Part shown: in pieces, positions 189 through 21,074 of the stretch
How positions within the stretch are numbered: the stretch's first letter is position 1
How the letters are laid out: every line of letters starts with the position of its first letter
NCBI GenBank assembly: GCA_947629195.1
Contig: CANRCS010000001.1
Coordinates: 1-29,768, forward strand
Direction of reading: 5' to 3'
DNA length: 29,768 nucleotides
DNA from: an uncultured Bacilli bacterium
Lineage (GTDB): Bacteria > Bacillota_I > Bacilli_A > RF39 > UBA660
The notes under the pieces: generated by a model
Seen by the model: the letters and a program-made list of their open reading frames with translations, nothing else
Database searches by the model: none
What the model was told of the DNA's origin: nothing
Made by a program: the position numbers and the translations under genes

Positions 189-833
189 ATGAATAAAAAA
201 ATTTTTATAGTCAGTATTATAGTTATGATGATATTTATACCAATAAAAATCTATGCAGATACTTGTTCTGCTGATATTCAAAATGAATACTATAACAAAA
301 TAAATAATATTAAATATAGTATTGATTATGTAGAAAATAATGATTATAACATTACATTTTATAATATACCAGAGAATATACAGATATATAATGATTATGG
401 AATATTAGTAAATAAAAACTCTGAAAGTGAAATAACATCCAGTTCATACGAAGGTGGGAAAAATTATACTTTTAATTTTTATATACAAAATTTATCATGT
501 GATATGAGTATAAAGTTTCAAAAGAATATTTATATTACAAAATATAATTTATATTCAGAAAGAGAAGAATGTAAATTAGAAGAAAATGCAGATTTTAAAC
601 TATGTAATCCAGAGTATCAGGGAACAATTACAGATGAATCATTTGAAAGAGAATTAAATAAATATACGGATGAGCTAAATAAAGATGTAGAAGAAGAGCC
701 AGTAGAGGTTAGCGAAAATAATAATAATAATTATTATTTATACTATATAATAGGTGGTATATCATTAATTTTAATAATAATGGTAATCATTATTATTAGT
801 AAAAGTAGGAAGAAGGCAAAAAGATTAATATGA
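189..833 (+). CDS. Secreted, C-terminally membrane-anchored hypothetical protein with 4 Cys
   Basis: The ORF track starts at TTG 174, but SD GGAG (176-179) fits ATG 189 better. Signal peptide MNKKIFIVSII...IKIYA|DTC; C-terminal TM followed by the basic tail KSRKKAKR. Stop overlaps the next start (ATGA 830-833). Confidence 0.8.
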   Translation: MNKKIFIVSIIVMMIFIPIKIYADTCSADIQNEYYNKINNIKYSIDYVENNDYNITFYNIPENIQIYNDYGILVNKNSESEITSSSYEGGKNYTFNFYIQNLSCDMSIKFQKNIYITKYNLYSEREECKLEENADFKLCNPEYQGTITDESFERELNKYTDELNKDVEEEPVEVSENNNNNYYLYYIIGGISLILIIMVIIIISKSRKKAKRLI

Positions 834-3800
834 GAGAAAAAAAGATTAAATATTCTTTTGTTATCGGAGCAATAGCGGTTTCGTTTTTGCTTGGAATTAA
901 AAATATATATGCAGGATACGCTGGCGATACAAACAGAACAGAAAAAGTCGAAGAATTTTCATGTTATAAAGGTCAAACTTCAGGATGTAGCAAAAAAAAT
1001 GGTTACGATGGCGGTGCAGATAACATAATATATTCTGTAGGAACTAGCAATGATCCAGCAATTAATGATTTTTATAGAAACCCAAGCAATGCTTATGACG
1101 AAAATATAGTACAATGTCAAGATGAAAGTACGCCAACAATAGAAGGTATGTATTCTTGTATAGAATCATCTCTTCATGATGGTGTGGCAAGTAAAAATAG
1201 AAATTTCAACAAAGTATATGGAGATAAAGCAATTGTGGTTGCAGCAGAAAAAAGAATATATTTTTACGATGCTGGTAGAGTAGATGTATGGGGATATGGT
1301 GATACAAATTCGACACCTACATTTGGCGCTACAAACTACTATGCTAATAACTTTGGTGGTCAGTTTGCTACTAATGGTAATAATGTGTTTACATTTCCTG
1401 GAATGTATCTTAAATATAAGGTTAATAATCCTAAAATACCATCTGAAGTTAAAAATACATTAGCTAGATATATTAAAAAGGATGCAAGTGCAACATTAAG
1501 TGATGAAGAAGTATCTAACTATGGCTTAAAACTAGTATCAGTAAGTGAAATAAATGATTATGGAAGTGCTCCAGCAAAGGAAGCTTTCGGCGGATCAGAT
1601 GATAGCACAGTAGATTTTTGGACAAAATGGCAAGTTGATCCGAGTAAACTAACTATAAAAGAAACTGAAACTGGCAAAGCGAATATGAACTATGAAGTTA
1701 CAATCGACTCTCTTACAACAGCAGGAGGGCCAAAATCTAAAATTGAGGGACATGAGGATATAAGGCTTGGTTATTGGTCTTCAATAAGACCTGCATTTTC
1801 TAAGTATAATATTGGGGAAACTCCAAGTAGTGAAATAGTATATCATTATTGGGTACCATATTTAGCGATATTTGAGTTTGAACCTCCTCATACTATAGAC
1901 TGCAATAATGCAGATGATGCCTATGCATATCCTAACACATGTTGTTGGGAATTTCCTGAAACATGTTGTACCAGTGCGGGTAACGCAGAAAAAAATGTAC
2001 CATCTATAAAAGAAGTATATGATAATTCAAATGAGGAAGTGAAAAAGAAAATAGAAAATACATGTTGTACTAATGAACCAACAATAAAATTTAATACTTA
2101 TACTCTTCCAACTTTTAATTCGTTAGATAAAAAAGAAGAATTTTTAGATAATTTCCCAGGTAAAATATGTCCAGCGTGTAGTTGGACCCCTAATTCTGAC
2201 AGATATTGTTGCAATGAACCTCCATATAAAGGTAGCTCTTATTGCCCTTCTGATGAAGAAACTGATAAATATTGTGAAGATAATGATTATTTTAATAAAC
2301 ATAAAGATATTTGTTGTCAAAAGGATAAGTATAAAAATGATACTACTAAATGTCCGCGTCCTTCTGACTCATGTGATGATGAAGAATTTTTTAACAATAA
2401 TAAAACAATGTGTTGCCAACAGGATAAATATAAAAATGATACTACTAAATGTCCAGTTCCTACTGAATCATGTGATGATAATAAATTTTTTGAGACCAAC
2501 AAAAATATATGTTGTAAGCTAGAAAAATATGTTAATGATGCTAGATGTATCTCTAAAACAAATGCTTGTACTGATGAAACATACTTTGAGGGACATAAAA
2601 GTACTTGTTGTAGTGATTTTAGTAAAGATCCGAATTCTAGTTTATGGAAAACAAATGCTTGGCAATGTTGTAATGAAGAAGATATTACGAATGAAGCAAA
2701 AGCAACATGTGATATTCCTTACGTAGAACCTAAAAATCAATCATGTGATAAAGATAATAGCTTTGATTTAAAAACAACCATTAATGGCAAAAATAGTTTT
2801 ACAGAAACATTATCAATATCAGCGGTTGATCCATATAAAAATGGCAGCGATAATGCTAAACCGAAAGTTTCTGCAGGTCAAGGGTTTAAATATGATATAC
2901 ATGTAAAAGATAAAATAGTACTAGATAGCAATTCTACTTATCCTAAAGGTACTGCTAATATGAATTGTAATTCTGTTTCATCTGCTTTTGAAACATATAA
3001 TAAATCAATAGAAGATGCTCTTAAAAAGATTAAAGCTGATGCAATTAGAAAACAAATAATATATTTTAAAGAAGATGGTTCAACTGAAAGTAATTATAAA
3101 TTTAAGTATGTTTATAGAGAAGCAGGCAAAGAAAATGAATTAATAGATTCTATAAATTCCAAAAAAGTAAATGTAAAGAAAGAAAATACAAGTGTTGCTT
3201 GTATAGATTATTATTATAATCCGTATTCTGGTATAAATGTTCCTTACAATTCGTCGACTAATGTTACAATATATAAACCTGAAATAACAATTGATATTGA
3301 TTATGATATGACTTTGCCAACATATTATATATCAAATAATTCCAATATTAATGATGAAACAGAACATACCATTTCGGATAAAAATAGTCCACTTTATATA
3401 AATGGAGGAAATCAGTTTTATACTAATGTTTATGATAAAACTCTTAAAAATGGTGAAAATGCTAGAGGTACATATTGGAAAGGATTTAGTATACAGGTTG
3501 AAAATGGTGGTATTACAGTTGATAATGAGGGCGATGAGACAGGAAGACTTAAAACAACAGATAGTAATAAATATACATGTTCCTATAGAATTTCAAAATG
3601 TTTAACAGAAGGATCTTGTCCAAAAGATGACAATAATACTCGCTTTCCATCAAGCTCTGTTAGTGATGCTAAAGAAGATTATTATTCAAGGCCTATATCG
3701 TTAACTACACCGTTCCCAAATTTAAGAGAATCTGGTCCTAACTGGAATGGAACAGCTAAGAATGGTACATTTGATTTACCTACTACATATATTACAAGTG

Positions 3801-4105
3801 GTACACCAACAAATCCAAAAGGAGATAAAGTGTATTCAAAAGCAATGTATTCAATTAAATTAACACCAGAACTTATAAATAATATAAAAAAATATAATAA
3901 TTCACAAAATGACCATGGTGGATATCTTGATTGGGAAATGACATCGTATGATGATTATAAGAGAACGAGCAAGTTTTTAAGCTGTTTAAACGGTACTACT
4001 TCGGATTGTACTACAAACATGAGAAGTGCTGGTTTAAATGCTAAAAAAACATTAAATATAACATTAAGCGATGAAGCAAGAAAAAATAAAATTGGAGAAT
4101 TTTAA
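830..4105 (+). CDS. Large secreted Cys-rich repeat protein (1091 aa), candidate pilus-associated adhesin
   Basis: N-terminal signal peptide (MREKKIKYSFVIGAIAVSFLLGIKNIYA), no C-terminal anchor, central region with 9 CC pairs. Translationally coupled to the upstream gene and upstream of the Tad genes. The function is inferred. Confidence 0.75.
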   Translation: MREKKIKYSFVIGAIAVSFLLGIKNIYAGYAGDTNRTEKVEEFSCYKGQTSGCSKKNGYDGGADNIIYSVGTSNDPAINDFYRNPSNAYDENIVQCQDESTPTIEGMYSCIESSLHDGVASKNRNFNKVYGDKAIVVAAEKRIYFYDAGRVDVWGYGDTNSTPTFGATNYYANNFGGQFATNGNNVFTFPGMYLKYKVNNPKIPSEVKNTLARYIKKDASATLSDEEVSNYGLKLVSVSEINDYGSAPAKEAFGGSDDSTVDFWTKWQVDPSKLTIKETETGKANMNYEVTIDSLTTAGGPKSKIEGHEDIRLGYWSSIRPAFSKYNIGETPSSEIVYHYWVPYLAIFEFEPPHTIDCNNADDAYAYPNTCCWEFPETCCTSAGNAEKNVPSIKEVYDNSNEEVKKKIENTCCTNEPTIKFNTYTLPTFNSLDKKEEFLDNFPGKICPACSWTPNSDRYCCNEPPYKGSSYCPSDEETDKYCEDNDYFNKHKDICCQKDKYKNDTTKCPRPSDSCDDEEFFNNNKTMCCQQDKYKNDTTKCPVPTESCDDNKFFETNKNICCKLEKYVNDARCISKTNACTDETYFEGHKSTCCSDFSKDPNSSLWKTNAWQCCNEEDITNEAKATCDIPYVEPKNQSCDKDNSFDLKTTINGKNSFTETLSISAVDPYKNGSDNAKPKVSAGQGFKYDIHVKDKIVLDSNSTYPKGTANMNCNSVSSAFETYNKSIEDALKKIKADAIRKQIIYFKEDGSTESNYKFKYVYREAGKENELIDSINSKKVNVKKENTSVACIDYYYNPYSGINVPYNSSTNVTIYKPEITIDIDYDMTLPTYYISNNSNINDETEHTISDKNSPLYINGGNQFYTNVYDKTLKNGENARGTYWKGFSIQVENGGITVDNEGDETGRLKTTDSNKYTCSYRISKCLTEGSCPKDDNNTRFPSSSVSDAKEDYYSRPISLTTPFPNLRESGPNWNGTAKNGTFDLPTTYITSGTPTNPKGDKVYSKAMYSIKLTPELINNIKKYNNSQNDHGGYLDWEMTSYDDYKRTSKFLSCLNGTTSDCTTNMRSAGLNAKKTLNITLSDEARKNKIGEF
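2270..2617 (+). repeat. Coding tandem repeat, ~99-bp/33-aa unit, about 3.5 copies
   Basis: AGGATAA(G/A)TATAAAAATGATACTACTAAATGTCC recurs at 2322 and 2421. Protein units: YCEDNDYFNKHKDICCQKDKYKNDTTKCP / SCDDEEFFNNNKTMCCQQDKYKNDTTKCP / SCDDNKFFETNKNICCKLEKYVNDARC / ACTDETYFEGHKSTCC. Confidence 0.9.
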
Positions 4106-4119
4106 GTAGAGGTGATTAG

Positions 4120-4542
4120 ATGCAGACATCATTTTGGGGATATTTTATAATAGTAACTGGTATAGTTGGAATAAGCATTTTACTTTTATTTCAAGATATA
4201 ACAAATACTGATGAACAAAATTATTATTTAATAAAAGAAATTACCGAATCATCAATGATTGATTCTATCGATATAGCATATTATAGAAAAGAAGGCGGAC
4301 TAGCTATTGATAAAGAAAAGTTTGTAGAGACTTTTATAAGACGATTTTCTGAAAGTGCTTCTATGATGAGATCATACGACGTAAAATTTCATGATATTGT
4401 TGAAATGCCACCAAAAGTTAGCTTAAGCGTTGGTTCTAAAAGTCAGATATTTAACTTTACTGGTGATGATTTTGATATATATAATAAATTAGATACTATT
4501 TTAGAAACAGAACATATTGAAAATAAATTTGCTACTAGTTAA
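4120..4542 (+). CDS. Single N-terminal TM protein, pseudopilin-like (resembles DUF5411 family)
   Basis: SD GAGGTG 4109-4114; hydrophobic N-terminus WGYFIIVTGIVGISILLLF followed by QNYYLIKEITESSMIDSID...KEKFVETFIRRF. The family match is from memory only. Confidence 0.55.
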   Translation: MQTSFWGYFIIVTGIVGISILLLFQDITNTDEQNYYLIKEITESSMIDSIDIAYYRKEGGLAIDKEKFVETFIRRFSESASMMRSYDVKFHDIVEMPPKVSLSVGSKSQIFNFTGDDFDIYNKLDTILETEHIENKFATS

Positions 4543-4689: not shown

Positions 4690-5619
4690 ATGAATAATTT
4701 TGCTGGTTCATTAAAAAAAATAATAACAAATAGAAATACAGTAACAATTATAGGGACTTTGGTTGGAATATTAATACTTTATTTTGGATATACGTGGAGA
4801 ATCAATCAACAAGTTGATACTGTTAGTGTTCTTGTTGCTAATCAAAATATACAACCTAGAACAAAAATAACAGAAGACATGGTTGAAACAGTTGAAATTG
4901 CAAGAGTTATGTATGATAAAATGATGGATTCAAACAGTAATGCAGCTGTCTTAAGAACTTCAACAGAATTAAAAACTGCATTTGTTGATGGTGCGTATTC
5001 AAATATTAATGCACTTATTCCAAAAGGAAGCGTTTTAATCAAGAATACAAATGTTGTTGATTATAATAAAATACCATCTTCTGTATTAACAAAAATTGAA
5101 GAAGGACAAATACCATATGCATTTTCAATTAACTATTCTGATACATATGGTAATGCCATAATGGATGGTATGTATGTTAATATATATATGAGAGCAACAT
5201 CTGATGATGGTAAAACAATGTTTGGAAAATTTTTAGGAGATGTTAAAGTATTAGCAGTATTAGACTCTAGTGGTAGAGATGTATTTGAAAACACTGAAGA
5301 AAGCAGAACACCATCAACATTTATATTTAGCGTTGATGAAGAATATCACTTATTACTTAGAAAAGCAAAATATCTAGGTATAGAATTAGTTCCTGTACCA
5401 GTAACAGAATCAGTTACTGATGCTGATTATAAAGGTGATATTCAAATAACAAGTTCATATTTAAAAGATTATATTGAACAAAAAACTGTAAATGTTCCAG
5501 AAGATCAATTACCTGAAACAACTGATAAAGATAAAAATACATCTAGTAGTAAATCAAACAGTTCATCATCTAAAAATAGTACTACAAAAAATAATAGTAC
5601 AACTAATAATGGTGAATAA
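4690..5619 (+). CDS. cpaB: Flp pilus assembly protein CpaB/RcpC-like (SAF domain)
   Basis: N-terminal TM, SAF-like VLVANQNIQPRTKITEDMVETVEI, RcpC-like C-terminal part (GDVKVLAV...TFIFSV), S/N/K/T low-complexity tail; lies directly before cpaF. Confidence 0.75.
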   Translation: MNNFAGSLKKIITNRNTVTIIGTLVGILILYFGYTWRINQQVDTVSVLVANQNIQPRTKITEDMVETVEIARVMYDKMMDSNSNAAVLRTSTELKTAFVDGAYSNINALIPKGSVLIKNTNVVDYNKIPSSVLTKIEEGQIPYAFSINYSDTYGNAIMDGMYVNIYMRATSDDGKTMFGKFLGDVKVLAVLDSSGRDVFENTEESRTPSTFIFSVDEEYHLLLRKAKYLGIELVPVPVTESVTDADYKGDIQITSSYLKDYIEQKTVNVPEDQLPETTDKDKNTSSSKSNSSSSKNSTTKNNSTTNNGE

Positions 5620-5621: not shown

Positions 5622-6707
5622 ATGGATGATAATGTATTTGAACATATAGATTTTGGACCATTACAAACTTATTTAGATGATGACGATATAACTGACGTTT
5701 CTTATAGTAATGGTGGACAATTATGGTTAAAGTCATTAACAAAAGGTGTTTATAGAGTTGAAAATACAGAAGTAAACAATGCGCTTATTGAAAAATTAGC
5801 TTTTCAATGTGCGAATGCAATGGGTAAAACATTTAATATGGCAGAACCATTTCTTGATGCTGAAGGTACCGAATTACGTCTTAATTTCATTCATGATTCA
5901 ATTGCAAAGAATGGAATTGCAGTAGTTTTAAGAAAGACACCAGCAAAAATAAGACTTAATAAAGATAAACTCATGAAGGAAAATTATGTAACTATGGACG
6001 TACATGACTTTCTTATTGAATGTGTACACGGACATTGTAACATAATCGTAAGTGGTGAAACTGGTTCAGGTAAAACAGAATTTATTAAATATCTTGCATC
6101 TCATACATATGAAAATGAAAAAATAATCACAATAGAAGATACCCTAGAACTTCACTTAGATAGAATATTCCCCCATAGAGATATTGTAGCAATGAAAACA
6201 AATAACATAGCATCATATTCAGATGTTCTTGTTACATGTATGAGACAAAATCCAAAATGGATATTACTATCGGAAGTCAGAAGTGCAGAAGCTGTTATGG
6301 CAGTAAGAAACTCTATTTCTTCTGGACATAATATCTTATCAACAATTCACTCTGATAAAGCAGAATCAATTCCAAGTCGTATGTTCAGCTTACTGGAATC
6401 TAACCAAGATATCGAACAATTTTTAATTTCAATACACAGATACGTACAATTAGGTATACATATTAGAGGATATTTTTCTAAACAATATAATAGATTTCAA
6501 AGAGAAATAGTAGAAGTTACAGAGTTTTTTGTTACAGAAGATAATAAACCAGGACATCATACTATTTATAAAAAAACATCTGATGGTAGAATTTTTAGAA
6601 GTAATCCTACAAAATATCTAATTAACTATTTAGATATCCAAGGTATTACATTACCAGATTCTGTAATGGTAAAAGAACAAGAAGATGAAGAAGAAATAAT
6701 AATGTAA
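5622..6707 (+). CDS. cpaF: CpaF/TadA/VirB11-family secretion ATPase
   Basis: Walker A GETGSGKT, Asp box TIEDTLEL, Walker B ILLSEVR after MRQNP, His box STIHS. Confidence 0.92.
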   Translation: MDDNVFEHIDFGPLQTYLDDDDITDVSYSNGGQLWLKSLTKGVYRVENTEVNNALIEKLAFQCANAMGKTFNMAEPFLDAEGTELRLNFIHDSIAKNGIAVVLRKTPAKIRLNKDKLMKENYVTMDVHDFLIECVHGHCNIIVSGETGSGKTEFIKYLASHTYENEKIITIEDTLELHLDRIFPHRDIVAMKTNNIASYSDVLVTCMRQNPKWILLSEVRSAEAVMAVRNSISSGHNILSTIHSDKAESIPSRMFSLLESNQDIEQFLISIHRYVQLGIHIRGYFSKQYNRFQREIVEVTEFFVTEDNKPGHHTIYKKTSDGRIFRSNPTKYLINYLDIQGITLPDSVMVKEQEDEEEIIM

Positions 6708-6720: not shown

Positions 6721-7623
6721 GTGGATATACTAATATTTGGAGCCATTGCATTTATAGCAGTATTCATAATAACATATAGAGCAAAAAAAGGTGAAAAACT
6801 ATATAAATATGTAACAACTCAATTAAATGTAGTCTATGAAAAAATTGCTCCTTATTCTTACAAAGAAATACGTAAAAAGGTAAAAGATTTAAAAGCTGAT
6901 TTTACGCCAAGACAGTATCTTACACAAGTTATTTTATTTGCAGGTATTGCAGGTGGAATCACGTATTTATATTTTTATAGCATTATATGGTCTATAATAT
7001 ACGCAATTGTAGCCGTATGTTTTATTCCATATCTTACTTATATGAGATATAAAAGGGTGTATAGTGAATTTCTATTTGAGCAAGTTCAAGTATACGCTAC
7101 TAATACTATAATGGAATACCAAACAACTAAATCATTTGTTAAAGCACTTGAAGGTGTAGCTGACTCTGGGGTTTTAGAAGAACCTATGCTCAGTGATGTT
7201 AGAACTATGATTAAGATGTCATATGATGCAGGACAAATTGATGATTCAATAAAATTTATGAATGAAAAATATCCATATCATATAGTTAAAAATATGCATC
7301 AATTATTTTTACAAGTAACTAAAGAAGGTGCTCATGATATAACTGGATCACTTGATAATATGTCTCTTGATATAGACACCTTAGTTGAAGGAGTTTATCG
7401 TGATAGACTAGATAGACAACAATTTCATAAACAATTTATTACATATGGATTAATGTTATTTTTGCTTGTCGCCATTATCCAATTATTACTAGGTGTTGAT
7501 TCATATCTTGAGATGATAAAAGTATGGTATGTACAAGTAGTATTACACGGTATTTTACTATTTAATAGTTTCTTTTTACTAAATGGTGAAAAATATTATA
7601 ATGAGAATGTAGGTGCTGAATAA
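6721..7623 (+). CDS. tadB: TadB-like inner-membrane platform protein
   Basis: GTG start with SD AGGTGA; T2SSF-like topology of TM clusters flanking a helical domain; position after cpaF. Confidence 0.65.
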   Translation: MDILIFGAIAFIAVFIITYRAKKGEKLYKYVTTQLNVVYEKIAPYSYKEIRKKVKDLKADFTPRQYLTQVILFAGIAGGITYLYFYSIIWSIIYAIVAVCFIPYLTYMRYKRVYSEFLFEQVQVYATNTIMEYQTTKSFVKALEGVADSGVLEEPMLSDVRTMIKMSYDAGQIDDSIKFMNEKYPYHIVKNMHQLFLQVTKEGAHDITGSLDNMSLDIDTLVEGVYRDRLDRQQFHKQFITYGLMLFLLVAIIQLLLGVDSYLEMIKVWYVQVVLHGILLFNSFFLLNGEKYYNENVGAE

Positions 7624-8408
7624 TGTGGGAAATAGTTATTGTTGCAGTAATAATATTTGTTATATTATTCATAAACGGATCAGTTGATACTAATCAATTT
7701 TTTAAAGATAATGAAGCATATGTAAAACTATTAAAAGAAAAAGATTATGACTTTTTAGTTATGGCAAAATACGGTGATGATGTAGACGTAAATAGACTAT
7801 TTAATAAAAGAATTAAAAACGCAGTAATAATTTTTGGATTATTGATGATCTTCTTTATTACTAATCTGTCGTTTTTAAATATATTAATATGTCTTCTAGC
7901 AGCAGGATACGTATTCAAATCACAATATATAAATTTAAGAAGCTATTATAAAAAACATCTACATGATATTGATTTAATGCTTCCATATTACTTAAAATCA
8001 ATCGAAGTATTAGTTCAACACTATACAGTACCAGTTGCATTAGCAAAATCAGTAGATGATGCTCCAGATATGTTTAAGCCAGGACTTAAAGTTTTACTTG
8101 AAAGAATAGAATCCGGTGATTCTTCAATTGATCCATATATGGAATTTGCTCAAACATATCCCGTAAGAGACTCTATGCGTATGATGAGACTTCTATATAG
8201 ACTTGGACTTGGTATTCAAGAAAATAAAGAAGAGCAATTGTTATTACTTTCTAAAACAGTTTCATCGTTACAAAATAAAGCTCGTGAACAAAAATATAAA
8301 GAACGTTTAGAAAAAATGCAAAACAAAACAATGATAATGCTTGGAGTTACAGGAGTTGGTGTAGCAATATTACTAATTGTCGCAATGCTTCAAATGATGA
8401 ATGTGTAA
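7623..8408 (+). CDS. tadC: TadC-like inner-membrane platform protein
   Basis: TAATG 1-bp overlap with tadB; T2SSF-like LPYYLKSIEVLVQHYTVPVALAKS segment; C-terminal TM. Confidence 0.65.
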   Translation: MWEIVIVAVIIFVILFINGSVDTNQFFKDNEAYVKLLKEKDYDFLVMAKYGDDVDVNRLFNKRIKNAVIIFGLLMIFFITNLSFLNILICLLAAGYVFKSQYINLRSYYKKHLHDIDLMLPYYLKSIEVLVQHYTVPVALAKSVDDAPDMFKPGLKVLLERIESGDSSIDPYMEFAQTYPVRDSMRMMRLLYRLGLGIQENKEEQLLLLSKTVSSLQNKAREQKYKERLEKMQNKTMIMLGVTGVGVAILLIVAMLQMMNV

Positions 8409-9362: not shown

Positions 9363-9389
9363 TTATTCATAATAAAGGAGATGTCAAAT

Positions 9390-12825: not shown

Positions 12826-12831
12826 TAACAG

Positions 12832-13184: not shown

Positions 13185-13847
13185 ATGCCAGTAATTAATA
13201 ATCCACAACAGGCAAATGTAAATGGACAACCTGTGCAACCTACTCAACCACAAACACAACAAACGACAACTCAACAAGCAAAACCAACAACTAATACTAA
13301 AACAGATGATGCTTCAAGAAAATATGCTGAACAATGGTTACCAGTTAAGGATATACAAAATGGGGCAATAATATTAGAAAGCAATTGGAAAGTAACAGGA
13401 GTTAAAATAAGTCCAAGAAATATATTTATCTTGGATGAAGATTCACAAGCTAGTATTCTTATATCACTTAGAAATCTATATAATACACTAGATTATGAAT
13501 TTTGGATATTAGTAGCAGATAGACCGGTAGATATAACACTTTATGTTTCTCAATTACAATTATTGTATAATAATACACCTAATCCTAAAATTAGAAAATT
13601 GATTTCTGAAGATATGGATAAAGCTCAATTATTTAGAGAAAACAATGTAGTTGATACTGAATATTACTTAATGTTCCAAGAAAAACGTGACGACCTATTA
13701 CAAAAGAAAGTAAGAGAACTAATAAGTGGATTTACGAGTGCAGGATTAACTGCAATGCAAACTACAAATGAAGATTTAAGAGTATTATTAGATAACTTCC
13801 TTAATGAAGGAAGAGCTACTACATTTGGGACGGTGTTGCCATCATGA
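13185..13847 (+). CDS. TraC/VirB4 N-terminal-like accessory protein with Q/T/P-rich N-terminus
   Basis: WLPVKDIQNGAIIL...VKISPRNIFILDEDSQ...LRNLYNTLDYEFWILVADRPVDI resembles the VirB4 N-terminal module; ATGA overlap with virB4 (13844-13847). Confidence 0.6.
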   Translation: MPVINNPQQANVNGQPVQPTQPQTQQTTTQQAKPTTNTKTDDASRKYAEQWLPVKDIQNGAIILESNWKVTGVKISPRNIFILDEDSQASILISLRNLYNTLDYEFWILVADRPVDITLYVSQLQLLYNNTPNPKIRKLISEDMDKAQLFRENNVVDTEYYLMFQEKRDDLLQKKVRELISGFTSAGLTAMQTTNEDLRVLLDNFLNEGRATTFGTVLPS

Positions 13848-15628
13848 TGAGATTAAAATCACAATTAGCTCCAAAAGGATTAGATTTCCATCCTGGAGAT
13901 TTCATTATAAGTGGAAAATATGCTACTATAATGACAGTTATTTCTTATCCAAAATATATAAGTCCTGGTTATTTATCTGATTTAACAAATATGTCTGGAA
14001 TTAAGGTTGTTATAAAACATATACCAATAGACTTTAGCATTTTAAGAAAAATGTTAAATAAAGAAATTGCAGATTTAAAAAATAGATATGCAAATGAAAA
14101 AGATATAACACTCCAAGAAAGAATAAGACAAGACTATGAATCATTGGAATATTTCATTCAAAATTTAGCTGCATCGCAAGCAAGAATCTTTGATTTTCAA
14201 ATGCACATTATGATTACTGCTGATTCAAAAGAAGACCTTGATCAAAAGAAAGTTCAAGTTAAGAATTTTATTGAATCAATGGAAATGAATGCAGTTGTAT
14301 TACACTTTGAACAAAAGAAAGTATTACAATCTATTATTCCAATATTCCCTAAACAAGATATTGAAGATAGAATAGGAACACCAATGCCATCAGCTACAAT
14401 GGCTGCAATGTATCCATTTATATTCGATAGTATTAAGGATCCAGGATTATCAACACTACTTGGTATAGATTTTTCTGGTGGTGTAATCCTATTTAATCAA
14501 TTCTTATATCAAATTAAAAAAGAACATAATAGGAACAATGCAAACCTTATTATTTTAGGTACATCTGGTAGTGGTAAATCAACTGCTGCAAAAGTTATTT
14601 TAAGAAGTCATATAAGAAATTCAAATCAAATTGTTGCAATTGACCCTGAAGGGGAACTTGAAGATATGACTAAACTTTACGAAGGGGACTTTATAGACCT
14701 TGGTAAAGGTGGTCAATATGGTATGATAAATCCACTTGAAATTATAATGGATGCAGATGATGATAGTGGACAAGGACTAGGATATACAGTTCTTACAAAT
14801 TCATTACAAAATATAAAAGCATTTATGAAATACTATTCTCCAGATATAACAGAAGATGTATTAAACTTATTCTCTGAAGTTGTACAAGATACATATAGAA
14901 GATTTGGGATTGATTTTAATACAGATTTTTCTAAGTTTAGAAGTGAAGATTATCCGACATTTAGAGATGTATATGCAACTATTTCAGGTAGACTTCTTGC
15001 AATGCAAGAAAGAACTCATGAAAGAGAAATAATGGAAAAACTTGAAATTAAAATTAGACCATTAACTAATGAATTAAAGTATTACTTTGATGGTCATACA
15101 ACAATAAAATTACATAGTGAGTTTATAGTATTTAATATAAAAGAACTTATGAATGCAGATGCAAATATTAAAAATGCATTATTCTTCAATGTATTAAAGT
15201 ATGCATGGGGACTATGTCTTGATAAAAGTAAAAATACTGCATTCTATGTTGATGAAGCGCATATCTTACTTGCTGGAAATAATACATTGGGTGCAGACTT
15301 TCTAGCGCAAGTTCAAAGACGTGCTAGAAAATATAACTCTGGTACTATAATAAGTACACAACAACCAACAGACTTCTCAGACCCACAAGTTATAACACAA
15401 GGTAAAGCAATATTTGATAATGCTTCCTACTATATAATAATGGGACTTAAGAAACAAGCTGTTGATGACTTGGCAATGTTAGTAGATTTAAATGATAATG
15501 AAAAAGATAGTATAAAAAGATATAATCAAGGAGAAGCATTATTCATATGTGGAAGTAGACGTATGAGAATTAATATAATAGTTACTCCTCAAGAATTAGA
15601 ATCATTTGGTGAACGAGGAGGTCTATAA
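13844..15628 (+). CDS. virB4: VirB4-family T4SS ATPase (short, 594 aa)
   Basis: Walker A GTSGSGKS, AIDPEGE motif, Walker B FYVDEAHILL, RRARKYNSGTIISTQQPTDF. Confidence 0.9.
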   Translation: MMRLKSQLAPKGLDFHPGDFIISGKYATIMTVISYPKYISPGYLSDLTNMSGIKVVIKHIPIDFSILRKMLNKEIADLKNRYANEKDITLQERIRQDYESLEYFIQNLAASQARIFDFQMHIMITADSKEDLDQKKVQVKNFIESMEMNAVVLHFEQKKVLQSIIPIFPKQDIEDRIGTPMPSATMAAMYPFIFDSIKDPGLSTLLGIDFSGGVILFNQFLYQIKKEHNRNNANLIILGTSGSGKSTAAKVILRSHIRNSNQIVAIDPEGELEDMTKLYEGDFIDLGKGGQYGMINPLEIIMDADDDSGQGLGYTVLTNSLQNIKAFMKYYSPDITEDVLNLFSEVVQDTYRRFGIDFNTDFSKFRSEDYPTFRDVYATISGRLLAMQERTHEREIMEKLEIKIRPLTNELKYYFDGHTTIKLHSEFIVFNIKELMNADANIKNALFFNVLKYAWGLCLDKSKNTAFYVDEAHILLAGNNTLGADFLAQVQRRARKYNSGTIISTQQPTDFSDPQVITQGKAIFDNASYYIIMGLKKQAVDDLAMLVDLNDNEKDSIKRYNQGEALFICGSRRMRINIIVTPQELESFGERGGL

Positions 15629-15659: not shown

Positions 15660-18011
15660 ATGGCTAATAATAATCAAAATTTTAATGCAGGTCAAAATAT
15701 TAGAGATGCATTGCAGAAAGCTCAAAAGGCAGCTAATGCTAGTGGAAAACCAGCAACTGCTTTTGTTAACATTACCCCTAAAAAACCAGTTGTAAATGCT
15801 AAAATAAATCAAGAAGAAAATGCTGTTTCAAATAAAATAGCAAATACAAAAATGAATAATCAATCACCTAATTTAGGAAAAAATAATAATAAAAATAATA
15901 AAAATGATAAACAAGATGAAGAAAATAAAAGAAATACCGAAATAAATCAAAAAGAGAAAACAAAAGATGAGTTAGAAAATAGTAAACAACAAAAATATAG
16001 TGGTAAAATGGTTGGACGTGGAGTAGTGCCAAGCATTGGATTAGGTTTAGGAAGTGAACAGACAAGCTCTAGTAGTGTAGATGTTGTATCCACAGTTCAA
16101 AAGATTAAAAAATATAAATGGCCAATTATGATTGGTGGAGGAATAGTGGCACTTTTATTTACTGTTATAATTGTTTTTTCGATGTTTCTTGCAGTTCAGA
16201 ATAATATAATTGATGCAGCAACAGAATGGCTTGAAAATGGTAAAAATCAGGTTGCATCATTTTTTGATAAGTTTGATAATTTCTTAAAAGGTAATGGTTG
16301 GTCAGATGACGAGACAGCATTTTTAAATGAATTAAATCAAAAAAATGAATATTATGAGAATAGAAATCTTCAAATTAATGTTCCATTAATTATGTCTACT
16401 CTAATGACAAAACAATTATATAATAGTAAAAATCCTAGTGATGATATGGGAGAAGAGTTCGCAAGTATTGATGAAGCACAAACTGATATAAATGAAATAA
16501 GATATGGTAGTATGATAGGTGATATGAGAAAATTAGTAGAATACCAAGTGGTAAAGTTTTTCTCACTACCATCTAATGCTGACCCATCAGTCTATGAAAC
16601 TTTAATAAATCCACCATTAGCAGTTTTAAATGGTGCGGCAAATTTGCTTAATGTAGCAGCAGATACATTATTTCCAAGAAACATGAGATTATCTAATGCC
16701 AATTATTTAAGTAATTTAAGATTTGGTAAAAGTGCGAGTGAAGATGTTATTAATTCTGAGTCGCCAAATTTATCTTCTACATCCAGCTCATATACAGGGC
16801 AAATAAGATTGACAAATTTTATTGATTATTCTGTTGGATGGAGAGGTATGAGTCCGTATGGATATATGAAAGAAAGATTCCGTTTAAACGAAAAAGGTTG
16901 GTGGATGTATAATGATCCTGATACTGGAATGGAATATTTAGCAGTAGCAGCACCTACGACATATTGTTTAGGAACTGGTTGTGGACAAAGTTGGAGTGAG
17001 ATTGATGGTATAACATATTATGAATATGGTGACATAATACCACTAAATATTGCAGGAGAGAATTATCAAGCAATGGTAATAGATTCATGTGGTGCATGTA
17101 TGAGCGCAACAAATCCACTAAAGATAGACGTGTACGCTAGTAGAGATTATTTTAGTGAAAGTGGTCTAACTTCTGCAGGACAAGCAGCAGGTGCTGTAAT
17201 GCCCGATGAATTAACTACAACAATAGGATCATTTCAAAGTAAACCTACTCAAGATTTTTGGGTATACAAAGATCCAACGCAAGAGGAAAAGCAAGATATA
17301 AATGGATACAAAAATGGATATATATACAAAGCTTATTCGGATGCATTTGTAGGATTAGATGATTCTGCTATACCAGAAAAAGTTGAATCTATAATTAAAA
17401 CCATCTACGATATGAAAGATTCATATATGGAATATAGTAATATGGGTAATAATACAACAAATACATTAGATACAATTACTGGTGAAAGAACATCTAGACC
17501 TAGTAGAACTAATGCTTTCTATTACGACCAAACAACTGATTCTGGAGCAGATGGTACATTAGAGGGTGAATGTGCATGGTATGCAACTGGTAGGGCTAAA
17601 GAGTTCTTAGCATCAATTAATAGCACTGAAACATGGACAGATAATCCAGATGGTGGTGACTTCTGTAATACTGCTGATGCTCAAAAATTTAATACAGGAA
17701 CTACTCCTAAAGCAGGATCATTAATTTCATGGAGTTATGAACCATATGGACACGTTGCATTTGTAGAAAGTGTAAATGCAGATGGTACATTTAATATAAC
17801 AGAAGCAGGTATAAGTTTTGGACAGTGGAGTAAAGGAGCTAGAAGTATAATAAATAGTGGAGATGAAAATAAATTAAGAAAAGAAAATTGTGAAGGTAAT
17901 GGAACAGGATGCATTAATATACAAAAAAATATTACAACTAGTTCATATAGTGGATTTAAATGTTTCATATATTTAACAGAACCAAAAAATGGAGGTAATA
18001 CTAGTGAATAA
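15660..18011 (+). CDS. VirB1-like membrane-anchored peptidoglycan hydrolase (3D/DPBB-like domain plus C-terminal CHAP)
   Basis: N/K/Q-rich N-terminus and a TM. YLAVAAP...YGDII...AMVIDSCGAC...KIDVY (about 16929-17140) is 3D/RlpA-like. GECAWYATGR...PKAGSLISW...YGHVAFVESVNADGTFNITEA (about 17560-17810) is a CHAP domain with Cys and His intact. Confidence 0.8.
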   Translation: MANNNQNFNAGQNIRDALQKAQKAANASGKPATAFVNITPKKPVVNAKINQEENAVSNKIANTKMNNQSPNLGKNNNKNNKNDKQDEENKRNTEINQKEKTKDELENSKQQKYSGKMVGRGVVPSIGLGLGSEQTSSSSVDVVSTVQKIKKYKWPIMIGGGIVALLFTVIIVFSMFLAVQNNIIDAATEWLENGKNQVASFFDKFDNFLKGNGWSDDETAFLNELNQKNEYYENRNLQINVPLIMSTLMTKQLYNSKNPSDDMGEEFASIDEAQTDINEIRYGSMIGDMRKLVEYQVVKFFSLPSNADPSVYETLINPPLAVLNGAANLLNVAADTLFPRNMRLSNANYLSNLRFGKSASEDVINSESPNLSSTSSSYTGQIRLTNFIDYSVGWRGMSPYGYMKERFRLNEKGWWMYNDPDTGMEYLAVAAPTTYCLGTGCGQSWSEIDGITYYEYGDIIPLNIAGENYQAMVIDSCGACMSATNPLKIDVYASRDYFSESGLTSAGQAAGAVMPDELTTTIGSFQSKPTQDFWVYKDPTQEEKQDINGYKNGYIYKAYSDAFVGLDDSAIPEKVESIIKTIYDMKDSYMEYSNMGNNTTNTLDTITGERTSRPSRTNAFYYDQTTDSGADGTLEGECAWYATGRAKEFLASINSTETWTDNPDGGDFCNTADAQKFNTGTTPKAGSLISWSYEPYGHVAFVESVNADGTFNITEAGISFGQWSKGARSIINSGDENKLRKENCEGNGTGCINIQKNITTSSYSGFKCFIYLTEPKNGGNTSE

Positions 18012-18765
18012 ATTTAAAATTATTGTTTGTATATTATTTTCCATGTTCTTAATAGGTTGTGAAGCAACATATAATGTAAATATTGATGGAAATAGTGTTA
18101 GTGAAGATGTTAGTTTTATTGAACAAGATAGTAGTAAATATGATACAATTTTATTTTCACATACTGATATAACATATAAATCTTCAATATATGAGAATGC
18201 AAAGTGGCCAACAGGAGCATTTTACCTAAAAAATGGAGATCCTTATGAACCTGTCATAATGGATGGAGTAGAATATTATAATCAAGACTTAATTGATGAT
18301 AATGAAGGACTTGGTATAAAATATGATTATAATTTCACTCTAGATAATTATAGAGAATCCAATGCTGCAAGATCTTGTTTTAAAAATTTTGGATTTGGTA
18401 ATGGCGATAAGAAAATAAGTATATATGCAAACGATGCAAGTTATTGTTTTAATGGACATAAAATGTTAGATAAGGTTACAATTAATTTAAAAACAACATA
18501 TCCTGTTATAAGTCATAATGCAGATAAATTTGATAAAGATAATAATACATATACTTGGAATGTAACAACTAAAAATGCTGAAAATAAAATAATAAAAATG
18601 GAATTATCAAAAGATTTAAATTATAAACCTGAAAAAGATAGTAAAGTTATTTTAGAGGAAAATAATTTTATGACTATGATTATAGCATTTGCTGTATTTG
18701 CTTTAGTTGGTGGTATAATTGTATTAATTCTTTATAACAAAAGCAAAACTACGAATAAGATATAG
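18004..18765 (+). CDS. Lipoprotein with additional C-terminal TM (LppM/DUF3153-like)
   Basis: SD GGAGG (17991-17995) fits GTG 18004, not ATG 17989. Lipobox LIG|C (Cys codon 18058-18060), VISHNADKFDKDNNTYTWNV motif, C-terminal TM plus basic tail. Confidence 0.7.
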   Translation: MNKFKIIVCILFSMFLIGCEATYNVNIDGNSVSEDVSFIEQDSSKYDTILFSHTDITYKSSIYENAKWPTGAFYLKNGDPYEPVIMDGVEYYNQDLIDDNEGLGIKYDYNFTLDNYRESNAARSCFKNFGFGNGDKKISIYANDASYCFNGHKMLDKVTINLKTTYPVISHNADKFDKDNNTYTWNVTTKNAENKIIKMELSKDLNYKPEKDSKVILEENNFMTMIIAFAVFALVGGIIVLILYNKSKTTNKI

Positions 18766-18804: not shown

Positions 18805-18848
18805 AAGACTATTATTTCAAAAAATTTCTTTATTTATTAATGTTTAGA

Positions 18849-18857
18849 TGTTATAAT
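18849..18857 (+). promoter_or_regulatory. Extended -10 promoter for virD4
   Basis: TG-t-TATAAT; SD GGAGGTG at 18876-18882. Confidence 0.55.
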
Positions 18858-18890
18858 ATATTTATCAATTGATTTGGAGGTGCCTTGCAC

Positions 18891-21074
18891 ATGAAATTAA
18901 AGTTTACTGCTGATGCAAAAGACTGGGTTATTTTTTGTTTGTACTTAGTTTTAATTTTATATTTAGTTGCAATAGCAGTTTTAAATATTGCCACATTATC
19001 TAGAGAGGGACAATTTTATGGATTAAATCCAATCGAAGCATTTATAAACCCTGATTATTTAAAACCAACAATAGTATTCTTTATTTTATTTGTACTAGCT
19101 GGTATAGCAAGTGTTCAATCAAAATTTTTTGAAATGGAAAAAGGTATTGGTTTTTCTACAAATAAAAAAGAAAGTGGATATTCAAGATGGGCAAAAGAAG
19201 ATGAAATTAAAAGAGAATTAAAGCCTGTCAATCCAAAAGCTCCTACAAGTGATGTTGCCGGTATTGCACTTATAAATGATGGAAAAACTATTTGGGTTGA
19301 TGATAGTGAATATCATAGTTTAATAATAGGATCAACTGGTTCTGGTAAAACTCAAACAGTAGTATTTCCATTAATTCAGACTTTAGCAAAAAAAGGCGAA
19401 TCAATGATTCTTACTGACCCTAAAGGTGAATTGTATGAAACAACAGCTAATTTACTTAAAAGTAAAGGTTATAAAATAATAGTAATAAATTTACGTGATC
19501 CTCAAAGAGGTAATGCATGGAATCCATTTCAATTACCATACAAATTATATAAATCAGGTAATTCGGATAAAGCTACGGAATTATTAGATGACTTAGCTAT
19601 AAATATATTATATGATGAAAAAAGTCAAAGTAGTGATCCATTTTGGGAAAAGACATCTGCTGACTACTTTACAGGTCTAGCACTTGGACTTTTTGAAGAC
19701 ACTGACGAAAATAAAATAAATATTAACAGTATTAACCTTATGAGTACTGATGGAGAAGATAAATTTGCAGGTTCTACATATATTAAAGAATATTTTAATA
19801 TGAAAGACCATTCTAAGCCAGCATATGTAAATGCATCAAGTACAATTAATGCACCTACTGATACAAAGGGAAGTATCTTATCAGTATTTAGACAAAAAAT
19901 AAAATTATTCTCATCAAAAGAAAACTTATCAGAAATGTTATCATATAGTGATTTTGATATGCAAGATATTGGTAAAGAAAAGACAGCTGTATTCTTAGTT
20001 ATCCAAGATGAAAAGAAAACATATCACTCTTTAGCAACTATCTTCCTAAAACAAGTATATGAAACACTAATCGATGTTGCTCAAGCTAATGGTGGACAAC
20101 TTCCAGTAAGAACAAACTTTATACTAGATGAGTTTGCGAATATGCCACCATTAAAAGATGTAACAACGATGATTACAGCAGCACGTTCAAGATTAATAAG
20201 ATTTAATTTTATTATCCAAAACTTTGCTCAATTAACACAAGTTTATGGTAAAGAAAATGCAGAAACCCTAAGGGGTAACTGTGGTAATATTATTTATTTG
20301 ATAAGTACAGAATTACAGGCACTTGAAGAAATCAGTAAATTATGTGGTGAAGTAAAATCAAAAGAAAAAGAAAAAACATCTTCTACACCACTTGTAACAG
20401 TTAGTGATTTACAAAGGATGAAACAATTTGAAATAATCGTCCTTAGAATAAGAAAATTTCCATTTAAAACTAAATTTACACCAAATTATAAAATGGATTG
20501 GGGTAATCAAAACTTTGATAAGGCAGAATTCCCAACAAGAGATAGAAGAACAGTTAACTTATTTGATGTAAAAGAATTTGTTAAAGAAAAGAAAAAAAGT
20601 AATTTAATGAATATACTTGATGAGCCTGTTAAATCTAATGTGATTCCAGATAGTCCATTTAATCCATTTGCAGGCGGTAACCCATTTAGTGATGCTAAAA
20701 GTCCATTTGAAAATAATCCATTTGGTGGACCAAAATCACCTGATGAAGAATTTAATGTTGATGAATTAGTTAAGAAAATAGATGCTAAAATTGCAGAACT
20801 TGAAGAAGAAGAACGTCGTGAAAAAGAAGAAATGGAAAGAAAAGCTAAAGAAGAGAAAGAAAAGAATAAAAAAGAAGAAAAAATAGTTGATGCAAAAGTA
20901 GAAGAAATTAAGAAAGAAGAAATACCTTCACAAATAAAACCTAAAGTAGAAACTACAAAACCTAAAGTAGAAAAGAAAGTTGTTAACAGACCTGTTATTA
21001 GTAAGAGTATTCAAGATAGAAACAACGATGAAATTAGCGATGATCAATTTTTCGATGATTTCTTTAGTGATTAA
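18891..21074 (+). CDS. virD4: VirD4/TraG-family type IV coupling protein with long disordered C-terminal tail
   Basis: Two N-terminal TMs, HSLIIGSTGSGKT, ILTDPKGELY, FILDEFANMPPL, ARSRLIRFNFIIQNFAQL..VYG. ATG 18891 is preferred over TTG 18885 on SD spacing. Confidence 0.92.
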   Translation: MKLKFTADAKDWVIFCLYLVLILYLVAIAVLNIATLSREGQFYGLNPIEAFINPDYLKPTIVFFILFVLAGIASVQSKFFEMEKGIGFSTNKKESGYSRWAKEDEIKRELKPVNPKAPTSDVAGIALINDGKTIWVDDSEYHSLIIGSTGSGKTQTVVFPLIQTLAKKGESMILTDPKGELYETTANLLKSKGYKIIVINLRDPQRGNAWNPFQLPYKLYKSGNSDKATELLDDLAINILYDEKSQSSDPFWEKTSADYFTGLALGLFEDTDENKININSINLMSTDGEDKFAGSTYIKEYFNMKDHSKPAYVNASSTINAPTDTKGSILSVFRQKIKLFSSKENLSEMLSYSDFDMQDIGKEKTAVFLVIQDEKKTYHSLATIFLKQVYETLIDVAQANGGQLPVRTNFILDEFANMPPLKDVTTMITAARSRLIRFNFIIQNFAQLTQVYGKENAETLRGNCGNIIYLISTELQALEEISKLCGEVKSKEKEKTSSTPLVTVSDLQRMKQFEIIVLRIRKFPFKTKFTPNYKMDWGNQNFDKAEFPTRDRRTVNLFDVKEFVKEKKKSNLMNILDEPVKSNVIPDSPFNPFAGGNPFSDAKSPFENNPFGGPKSPDEEFNVDELVKKIDAKIAELEEEERREKEEMERKAKEEKEKNKKEEKIVDAKVEEIKKEEIPSQIKPKVETTKPKVEKKVVNRPVISKSIQDRNNDEISDDQFFDDFFSD

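Follow-up and report, generated by a model that had tools for sequence, protein, structure and literature searches.

According to a 2025 review of type IV secretion systems (T4SSs), nearly all functions that these systems are known to have in Gram-positive bacteria are confined to DNA transfer, and the T4SS of the Patescibacteria is unique among monoderms, being needed by the cell itself and having VirB2-like pilins (PMC12857230). The VirB4 proteins of that system form a clade nested in the MPF-FATA type, most of its gene clusters have no relaxase, and it has an array of VirB2-like pilin paralogues; it is essential for epibiotic growth in Southlakia epibionticum and has been proposed to be co-opted for interaction with a host or partner (PMC12102498; PMC12857230), and a function in uptake is offered as speculation in the review (PMC12857230). 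Here we describe a locus at positions 189-21074 of a 29,768-nucleotide (nt) stretch of DNA, referred to below as the window, from an uncultured RF39-like Bacilli bacterium (GCA_947629195.1, contig CANRCS010000001.1), in which T4SS genes stand beside a candidate adhesin and genes resembling those for Tad pilus assembly. This locus is probably a chromosomally fixed, vertically inherited derivative of the kind of Gram-positive conjugation apparatus found on pBMB68 and on pLS20-family plasmids, a derivative from which the MobL relaxosome is gone and which has ceased to be mobile. We found no paper that links RF39 to T4SSs, pili or conjugation or that describes this system, and two RF39 genomics papers do not mention T4SS, pilus or conjugation genes.

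The window covers the initial 29.8 kb of its contig (C1), from base 1 on, has a GC content of ~26%, and belongs to a metagenome-assembled genome (MAG; G000) of 1.07 Mb in 144 contigs that is 89% complete. Nineteen open reading frames (ORFs) of >=84 amino acids (aa), all on the plus strand and beginning at 174/189, follow one another in the ORF listing of the locus with short gaps or overlaps; they are numbered here w01 to w19. The initial annotation of this region described the same content, a co-oriented set of an adhesin candidate, Tad assembly genes and a T4SS with a coupling protein, and counted 18 ORFs rather than 19. Families were assigned by profile searches of Pfam and NCBIfam, and surface, leader and transmembrane features by inspection of the sequences. 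Judged by these assignments and by the profile comparisons below, most of the defining parts of a Gram-positive (MPF-FATA-type) T4SS are present, namely VirB4, VirD4, VirB6-like and VirB3-like proteins and a VirB1-like hydrolase, but no VirB8-like component was recognized.

Relationship to described systems

The best plasmid matches to the VirB4 of the window were on B. thuringiensis plasmids of ~56-260 kb, most of them 62-72 kb. On pBMB68 (NZ_CP010581.1), the T4SS genes are ordered MobP3/MobL relaxase, type IV coupling protein (T4CP), TrbL, PrgI, hyp227, VirB4 and NlpC/P60 hydrolase, and a few genes on there follow hyp851, DUF5411, SAF, a TadZ-like AAA ATPase, CpaF, hyp316, hyp297 and DUF4320. 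The window resembles this arrangement, with a T4SS module that includes a separate ~220-aa protein before VirB4, beside genes for a giant protein, DUF5411, SAF/CpaB, CpaF, two polytopic proteins and small proteins, and the E-values between the two were 2e-83 for VirB4, 2e-72 for the T4CP and 3e-36 for CpaF. The order of the two modules is inverted, however, identities are 22-33%, and the VirB2-like pilins are extra in the window, whereas on plasmids of the pBMB68 kind the T4CP gene has a MobL/MobP3 relaxase gene directly upstream, and a TadZ-like AAA ATPase and replication and toxin-antitoxin genes are also present, all of them absent from the window. The tra region of pBMB68 appears to resemble the pXO2/pAW63 type of the B. 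cereus group, and that of pAW63 has VirB11, VirB4 and VirD4 homologues (PMC1196294, PMC9673590). That pBMB68 carries both sets of genes (see also PMC1196294 and PMC9673590) bears out the caveat of the initial annotation that Tad-like and T4SS genes occur together on B. cereus-group plasmids.

The second close relative is the pLS20-family plasmid pBatNRS213 (OK210094.1), on which the Tie adhesin is followed by a small DUF5411-like protein, a VirB11-like ATPase, two membrane proteins, DUF4320 and small proteins, and then, in the later part, by T4CP, extended VirB6, proteins of 103 aa and 192 aa, VirB4, VirB8, VirB1, Aux1, Aux2 and relaxase. Plasmids of the pLS20 type have Aux1, Aux2, a MobL relaxase (PF18555, 9e-112), surface exclusion and quorum regulation in addition to what the window holds, and pBatNRS213 has a VirB8, whereas no VirB8-like protein was recognized in the window. 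The secreted protein w02 occupies the position of the Tie adhesin in the pLS20-family operon, although Tie has a thioester domain and none was detected in w02. The same pairing of a Tad-like module with a T4SS occurs on a Mycoplasmatota plasmid. Because the same adhesin-DUF5411-CpaB-ATPase module lies beside the T4SS on pBMB68 and pLS20-family plasmids, the whole set would represent one conjugation apparatus minus its relaxosome, and the initial view of a Tad pilus joined to a T4SS as two systems gives way to that of a single apparatus of the pBMB68/pLS20 kind. The "VirB11"/CpaF module is a standard part of such an apparatus.

BLAST or profile matches link w04, w05, w06, w07, w13, w14, w15, w16 and w19 to plasmid counterparts. 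The SAF-domain protein w04 matched that of pBMB68 (blastp 1e-14, hhalign 99.8%), and the best plasmid matches of the ATPase w05 were "VirB11-like" proteins of the pLS20 family (32-35% identity). The two polytopic proteins matched the corresponding genes after CpaF, w06 with hyp316 of pBMB68 (hhalign 88% over 247 columns) and hyp268 of pBatNRS213 (blastp 6e-4), and w07 with hyp297 of pBMB68 (hhalign 95%, blastp 3e-4). Of the channel components, w13 matched the "Extended-VirB6-like" protein of the pLS20 family (hhalign 96% over 313 columns), w14 the equivalent-position gene of the Mycoplasmatota plasmid (hhalign 93%) and PrgI of pBMB68 (59%), and w15 the pBMB68 protein hyp227, which likewise precedes VirB4 (blastp 1e-16, hhalign 98%). 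DUF5411 stands directly before the SAF/CpaB gene on pBMB68, and a weaker match to it stands before the VirB11-like gene on pBatNRS213. Fainter likenesses connect the C-terminus of w02 to hyp851, the gene product encoded just before DUF5411 on pBMB68 (E 0.012), and w09 to DUF4320 of the pLS20 family (hhalign 42%).

The VirB4 of the window is encoded by two genes, w15 (13185-13847) for the N-terminal domain and w16 (13844-15628) for the ATPase, which overlap by 4 nt. The former matched positions 98-277 of the 894-position Mbov_0397 VirB4 model (7.5e-14), and the latter matched NF045975 (Mbov_0397 family, 5e-106), NF045971 (CD1110, 2e-52), P-loop_TraG and AAA_10 and has intact Walker A and B motifs. 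A VirB4 broken by a frameshift was considered and rejected, as the two-gene form with its 4-nt overlap is kept in all relatives examined and in the plasmid homologues. The coupling protein w19 (18885-21074) is of the VirD4 type and matched PF02534 (T4SS-DNA_transf, 2e-57), TrwB_AAD_bind (8e-25) and NF045973 (CD1115 family, 3e-91), the last with 306.6 bits against a cut-off of 250; it has a Walker A motif, keeps the DNA-binding all-alpha domain, and has a K/E-rich tail that ends in an acidic-aromatic motif. The third ATPase, w05 (5622-6707), is a secretion ATPase of the CpaF/TadA/VirB11 superfamily (T2SSE 1e-27, Walker A GETGSGKT); its matches to TIGR03819 and to models of VirB11 (1e-30 to 1e-32) all stayed under the equivalog cut-offs, and it is therefore assigned at the superfamily level only.

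The best NCBIfam model for w15 and w16 together was the VirB4 of the T4SS of Mycoplasma integrative and conjugative elements (ICEs), which comprises CDS5/TraG, CDS16 and CDS17/VirB4, although the score of 355 bits was below the cut-off of 590. That machine is minimal and mediates chromosomal transfer (PMC12857230). Unlike the window locus, Mycoplasma ICEs are mobile and patchy and have neither the hydrolase nor the ATPase/pilin module. The likeness to the Patescibacteria is of another kind, in that both loci belong to monoderm, genome-reduced lineages and have VirB2-like pilins, and the RF39-like locus, like most Patescibacteria clusters, has no relaxase; it is vertically inherited, and in the relatives it includes one to six pilins of PF18895. 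The two differ in phylum and in the integrated CpaF/CpaB/adhesin module of the window, and essentiality and an epibiotic lifestyle are features of Southlakia, whereas the RF39-like locus is known here from its genes. We take the Patescibacteria T4SS to be the closest evolutionary analogue of the locus, and the conjugation systems of pBMB68 and pLS20 to be its nearest mechanistic relatives.

Like the loci of the Tad/Flp (type IVc) pilus, the window has an ATPase of the CpaF family, a CpaB-like protein, a pair of polytopic proteins where TadB and TadC would stand, and small proteins in which a leader ending in Gly is followed by a hydrophobic helix. Unlike them, it has no TadV peptidase, TadZ or secretin and gave no T2SSF or Flp family matches, and its leaders (MKEATG/E... 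and MREAIG/S...) are of six residues and have no Glu at +5, in contrast to those of Flp prepilins (G/XXXXEY). There is no Peptidase_A24 in the block, and the only copy in the genome is at C4:19271-19600. A separate locus of the same MAG (C4:14519-19906) has a gene order like that of a canonical Tad/Flp cluster. It encodes a prepilin peptidase (Peptidase_A24), a pair of TadE-like proteins with a G/QALVEF-type motif, a P-loop protein resembling TadZ, a CpaF of 442 aa, and further ORFs where TadB and TadC would be expected; the peptidase (Pfam) and CpaF (tblastn) are the two with search support. Given this canonical-looking locus, the Tad-like module of the window would be a divergent paralogous set.

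Distribution, inheritance and mobility

Of the 149 family genomes sampled, from >80 genera, 141 have a single-copy orthologue of the VirB4 (w16), at 65-79% identity (93% in the congener G001), and there were no stop codons in the ~140 orthologues. The coupling protein had an orthologue in ~58 of 60 genera, and the w05 ATPase a single-copy orthologue in 56 of 60 family genomes. Relatives of this VirB4 are present in at least 581 species-representative MAGs labelled as uncultured Bacilli, Tenericutes or Mollicutes, and the best 80 of them, at 72-95% identity, include the MAG UBA660 (RF39-like) and a closed 1.54-Mb chromosome (G203). The genomes of the lineage are small (0.8-1.5 Mb). Elsewhere in the class, a VirB4 match was found in nine of ~340 genomes, all at <=35% identity except in two small families (62% and 70%), and no orthologue there fell between 35% and 62% identity. 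The 62%-identical protein is on G030:C10 (family f7). Such orthologues outside the family indicate either that the system is older than the family or that it has moved between families at least once.

The Tad-like and T4SS modules were adjacent in ~31 sampled genomes, on different contigs in ~21, and 41 kb apart in one. In three genomes (G010, G011 and G012) the flanks revealed that the two modules are truly separated and both retained. The retention of dispersed modules in some genera points to selection on the genes and not on a transferable unit.

Trees of RpoB, VirB4 and the T4CP were compared for 29 genomes. The RpoB and VirB4 trees had 15 of 26 splits in common (label permutation mean 0.16, maximum 2), and 14 of the 15 strongly supported VirB4 splits were present in the RpoB tree. 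The patristic distances of the two were correlated (Mantel r 0.74-0.77, with 0 of 2000 permutations as high), and their mean patristic distance was 0.53 for both proteins. The T4CP tree behaves like that of VirB4 relative to RpoB, the protein evolving ~2.5 times faster.

The ratios of nonsynonymous to synonymous substitution rates (dN/dS) between the window and the congener are rough because dS is near saturation. They were 0.04 for VirB4 and for the w05 ATPase (92% identical in the congener), 0.12 for the T4CP and 0.10-0.14 for w06, w07 and w03, compared with 0.19-0.32 for five flanking core genes and 0.38-0.63 for the exposed parts w09, w18, w13, w01 and w02. The motor and channel parts (the w05 ATPase, the two platform-like membrane proteins, the CpaB-like protein, VirB6, VirB3, the two-gene VirB4, the hydrolase and VirD4) are intact, with Walker A motifs preserved in all three ATPases (w05, w16 and w19), and are under strongly purifying selection, whereas the exposed parts (w02, w01, the lipoprotein, the pilin-like proteins and VirB6 in its outer part) diverge much faster than the neighboring housekeeping genes.

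To the right, the block is followed by core chromosome, with yunB, a gene for a DUF4015 protein, yutD, a LytR-PASTA protein gene and recG. The boundary is marked by the sporulation gene yunB (21132-21920, plus strand), which matched TIGR02832 at 5.6e-52, above the cut-off, and is syntenic in the congener. Since the window begins at base 1 of the contig, its left flank is truly missing, and the left flank was taken from the congeneric genome G001, which has the entire block and the right flank in the same order. The 15 kb to the left in that genome encode two VanY-domain cell-wall proteins, a PD-(D/E)XK family protein, a thioredoxin, a SpoU methylase, CdsA, a type IV pilin-like protein and MiaB, and no relaxase or integrase was found there, although not every flank ORF was scanned. 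A search for att-like repeats at the boundaries of the block in G001 gave a longest direct repeat of 12 nt, within the range of 11-17 nt for shuffled sequence. In a genome of another genus (G023), genes for surface proteins and a sortase-like gene border the block at one end and those for DedA and RmuC at the opposite end, with no recombinase in the flanks. The initial annotation had placed the locus in the core chromosome and had named a relaxase, integrase or att site to the left, patchy presence among relatives and incongruent trees as the marks of an ordinary mobile element; the congener's housekeeping flank, the near-universal single-copy VirB4 and the agreement of the VirB4 and T4CP trees with that of RpoB all speak for its placement.

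No block ORF matched a relaxase, integrase, transposase, recombinase or replication family of Pfam or NCBIfam, as had also been noted at the outset. In the remainder of the genome, there was no PF18555 (MobL), PF02486 (Rep_trans), PF01076 (Mob_Pre), PF03389 (MobA_MobL) or PF08751 (TrwC), and tblastn searches with two plasmid relaxases and Aux1/2 gave no match. The sole relaxase trace in this MAG is an 82-aa ORF (G000 C6:20455-20703; L001:1474-1722) that corresponds to positions 7-61 of the PF03432 MobA/VirD2 relaxase domain, and which looks like what is left of a mobile element that has decayed and has no linkage to the locus. Neither MobL (PF18555), the family of the relaxases of both closest plasmid systems, nor a MobA/VirD2-type PF03432 was found in the closed 1.54-Mb chromosome that carries the locus, and no DNA-processing protein was found in or beside the block in any genome inspected.

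Relaxases do occur in the family. MobL was above the cut-off in four of 61 family genomes and PF03432 in six of 61, and PF03432 and Rep_trans are sporadic in the family, like MobL. Three of the four MobL loci adjoin a second VirB4 and T4CP, 26-30% identical, while the fourth MobL gene is on a small separate contig of G001; the PF03432 matches checked in G014 and G020 likewise adjoin second VirB4/T4CP copies. These relaxases beside second copies serve as an internal positive control for the scan. ICE-like clusters in which a relaxase (MobL or PF03432) lies a few kb at most from a divergent T4CP were noted on G052:C37, G046:C6, G014:C3, G020:C2 and G014:C22. The VirB4 proteins of such sporadic clusters are 24-30% identical to w16 and coexist with the conserved locus, of which the clusters could be mobile cousins.

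Based on the flanks, distribution and trees, we consider it very likely that the locus is domesticated and not self-mobilizing, as the initial annotation had proposed for this reduced Bacilli lineage. Several observations weigh against the derivation from a plasmid apparatus and its fixation in the chromosome. One genome of another family (G037:C76:14266-16050, family f14) has a VirB4 that is 70% identical and in the same gene order, present in one of three f14 genomes, which could reflect occasional transfer. About 5% of the family genomes have no VirB4 orthologue and a few keep one module only, so that the machine is either not indispensable everywhere or the MAGs, which make up nearly all of the genomes compared, are incomplete. 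To our knowledge, the T4SSs of Mycoplasma ICEs move DNA with no recognized relaxase, and, as the negative scans cover known relaxase families, a relaxase of some unrecognized family in RF39-like genomes is possible. No VirB8-like (NTF2-fold) component was recognized, w18 being the only positional candidate and the only protein whose fold was checked in this respect. The Tad-like assignment of w06 and w07 would follow from their position and from profile matches to unannotated plasmid proteins, as neither matched T2SSF, a profile search of PDB sequences gave nothing useful for them, and the AlphaFold2 (AF2) model of w06 (predicted local distance difference test score, pLDDT, 59.6) was too poor for a search for the GspF/TadB fold. 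The sequencing runs that contain the window sequence are rabbit gut metagenome DNA, with no RNA run listed, and we infer both the cargo of the machine and its direction of transport.

Possible roles of the apparatus

A fixed apparatus of this kind may have the attach-and-inject or attach-and-import role proposed in the initial annotation. In the mechanism that we infer, the pilin-like proteins with short leaders would be assembled by the ATPase module into a short filament or stalk, and this stalk would present the giant adhesin candidate w02, securing contact with another cell. The w17 hydrolase may then open the wall, the VirB3/4/6 channel and the VirB2-like pilins may form a conduit, and VirD4 would feed cytoplasmic substrates into it for export to the contacted cell, proteins being likelier than relaxase-piloted DNA. 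Such a machine would serve the interaction of the bacterium itself with gut microbes or host cells rather than helping an element to spread. The more specific proposal of outward protein delivery that depends on the T4CP is tentative, slightly more doubtful than probable in our estimation.

An alternative is that the locus is a chromosomal "sex" apparatus for DNA exchange within the lineage, operating with no relaxase or with an unrecognized one, much as in the chromosomal transfer of mycoplasmas or in pXO16, for which no relaxase or oriT has been identified (PMC9673590). This would let genome-reduced bacteria recombine. The affinities of the proteins fit such a role: the family nearest to w15 and w16 is the VirB4 of Mycoplasma ICEs, a machinery that mediates chromosomal transfer (PMC12857230), w13 has weak NCBIfam matches to the MMCAP2_0566 and Mbov_0396 ICE membrane protein families, the conserved VirD4 retains its DNA-binding domain, and the close homologues of the parts are all conjugation genes. 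However, the genomes inspected have no DNA-processing gene in or beside the block, the MobL genes of the family lie in separate ICE-like clusters in three cases and on a small contig in the other, and the fast evolution of the adhesin and receptor-facing parts fits recognition of a foreign partner at least as well as that of kin. We regard DNA exchange as unlikely, if still worth serious consideration.

A machine for import or scavenging, by which DNA, nucleotides or further kinds of molecule would be acquired from the medium or a contacted cell, as with ComB of H. pylori or as speculated for Patescibacteria, has a slim chance of being correct. It would suit the small genomes and the incomplete synthesis of peptidoglycan precursors predicted for RF39 (PMC10868615), and epibiotic growth depends on the analogous system of Patescibacteria, which has been suggested to act in uptake (PMC12857230). 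Against it, the genome has ComEC (contig C14) and the seemingly canonical Tad/type IV pilus locus with its prepilin peptidase, so a conventional uptake route probably exists already. The ComB uptake system is not known to include a VirD4. In the window, by contrast, the VirD4 has been kept and is subject to purifying selection.

An ordinary ICE or integrated conjugative plasmid, with its relaxase and integrase beyond the contig end, would account for a window that begins at a contig end, for plasmid homologues of all of the parts, and for the PD-(D/E)XK "transposase-family" gene two genes upstream in the congener; it was rejected as very improbable on the distribution (single copy in ~95% of the family), on trees congruent with RpoB at the same rate, on the congener's 15-kb housekeeping left flank with no repeat above chance, and on the relaxase scans, the closed chromosome having neither MobL nor PF03432 and the real ICEs of the same genomes being sporadic and relaxase-bearing. 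Hardly more credible is an adhesion or pilus organelle with the T4SS genes as a decaying, still-linked relic, as although G003 and G071 keep the ATPase module and not VirB4 and T4CP orthologues, G064 and G069 keep the T4SS with no ATPase match, and VirB4 is conserved like RpoB, with intact Walker motifs, no stop codons and, like the T4CP, a low dN/dS. The MAGs of these four genomes are 88-96% complete, so that missing sequence may account for the gaps.

If the locus is a domesticated conjugation apparatus, it suggests that the same evolutionary move as in Patescibacteria took place in Bacillota, with a plasmid-type mating apparatus minus its relaxosome becoming a core gene set, and it allows one machine to be compared, as nature provides it, in a mobile and a domesticated form. 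It is possible, albeit doubtful, that RF39-like gut Bacilli depend on the machine for obligate or near-obligate contact with gut microbes or host cells. Should this dependence on contact be true, the system would be the second known lineage-wide non-conjugative T4SS with VirB2-like pilins in monoderms, after that of Patescibacteria, and the first inside Bacillota, with plasmid ancestors still extant for comparison. Hundreds of uncultured gut species with small genomes, from humans and animals, carry the locus, which may provide a molecular handle on the partner interaction of RF39-like bacteria and could guide their cultivation. For plasmids of the pLS20/pBMB68 type, adhesin presentation and contact is a likely role of the unexplained "VirB11" module.

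Gene content and surroundings of the locus

The locus is preceded by a promoter-like site (122-151, plus strand; TTGCAA, an 18-nt spacer and TATACT, with TG), a consensus match in a region where promoter-like sites, at 156 against 146 expected by shuffling, are in no excess. After w19 there is a hairpin with a T-run (21080-21108, plus strand), read from the sequence and with an equivalent in the congener, which is the likely 3' end of the transcription unit; a terminator scan of this AT-rich region likewise gave no excess over the shuffled expectation. The ATG at 189 sits inside a TTG-started frame that begins at 174, and two short overlapping frames, 2214-2522 (plus) and 12584-12844 (minus), are probably spurious.

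The product of the first gene, w01 (189-833), is a small protein of the cell surface that begins with a signal peptide, is anchored in the membrane at its C-terminus (hydrophobic segments 3-33 and 186-214), and gave no family match in the Pfam and NCBIfam searches. It is fast-evolving, with 43% BLAST identity (40% in global alignment) to the congener orthologue and dN/dS of 0.56. The adhesin candidate w02 (830-4105) is a secreted, Cys-rich giant of 1091 aa with a signal peptide and 42 Cys, 30 of which are kept in the congener at 38% identity, the C-terminal ~200 aa being best conserved; there was no Pfam match, and an ESM Atlas look-up gave no usable match. The marker of the plasmid-type module, the DUF5411 membrane protein w03 (4120-4542), matched PF17424 at 1.8e-49. 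The CpaB/RcpC-like protein w04 (4690-5619) has a SAF domain and is membrane-anchored; its matches to PF16976 (2e-5) and TIGR03177 (7e-7) did not reach the cut-offs. Following the w05 ATPase are the two polytopic membrane proteins, w06 (6721-7623) in the TadB position, with four hydrophobic segments, and w07 (7623-8408) in the TadC position, placed by its position, topology and likeness to pBMB68.

The small pilin-like protein w08 (8509-8763) has the leader MKEATG and then a hydrophobic helix, and the pattern MKEA[AT]G followed by EANMTV is shared by ~50 of 63 members of its family. A similar leader, MREAIG, begins the pseudopilin-like w09 (8825-9274), with M[RK]E.IG in most of the 106 family members, often in two copies per locus. 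The membrane-anchored protein w10 (9381-9824) has a cadherin-like beta-sandwich (PF12733 E 6e-7). Its slot, between the pseudopilin-like and VirB2-like genes, is variable, and most relatives have there an unrelated ORF of 315-348 aa with no Pfam match.

Next comes the VirB2-like pilin w11 (9927-10292), which matched PF18895 at 4.6e-5, as did 18 of 36 sampled members of its family (best 3.6e-8). The second VirB2-like pilin, w12 (10402-10758), is a paralogue in the same hidden Markov model family with 33% identity to w11, and one to six such paralogues occur per locus among the relatives. The VirB6-like channel protein w13 (10780-12825) has a long, variable extracellular or C-terminal part and 41% BLAST identity to its congener counterpart (dN/dS 0.49), and w14 (12832-13149) is a VirB3/PrgI-like small membrane protein by hhalign.

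Downstream of VirB4, w17 (15660-18011) is a predicted membrane-anchored cell-wall hydrolase, the equivalent of VirB1, with a CHAP domain at residues 635-716 (8e-15) and a transmembrane segment at 152-187. The domain in this slot differs by genus, being CHAP in the window and SpoIID in G023. The lipoprotein w18 (17989-18765) has a lipobox (LIGC) and a C-terminal transmembrane helix. Its AF2 model (pLDDT 74.5) had as best Foldseek matches LppM, PA4063 and ZrgA, at TM-scores of 0.37-0.53, and a profile search of PDB sequences gave nothing useful. An assignment of w18 as VirB8 was not supported, with no NTF2/VirB8 fold in Foldseek and a hhalign probability of 0.6% to the VirB8 of pLS20.

Two genes in the left flank of the congener merit description. 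One (G001:C2; L182:14667-15725, minus strand), two genes upstream of the w01 orthologue and among housekeeping genes, encodes a 352-aa protein of the PD-(D/E)XK_2 "transposase family" (Rpn-like). The other (G001:C2; L184:1028-2191, minus strand), ~8 kb upstream, encodes a 387-aa protein in which a canonical N-terminal methylation (type IV pilin) motif is fused to a glycine-rich domain of the ALK/LTK type. In the right flank of the window, positions 24114-26349 hold a 409-aa ORF with a weak DUF1292 match at its N-terminus and a 311-aa ORF with no match, both of which are syntenic in the congener.

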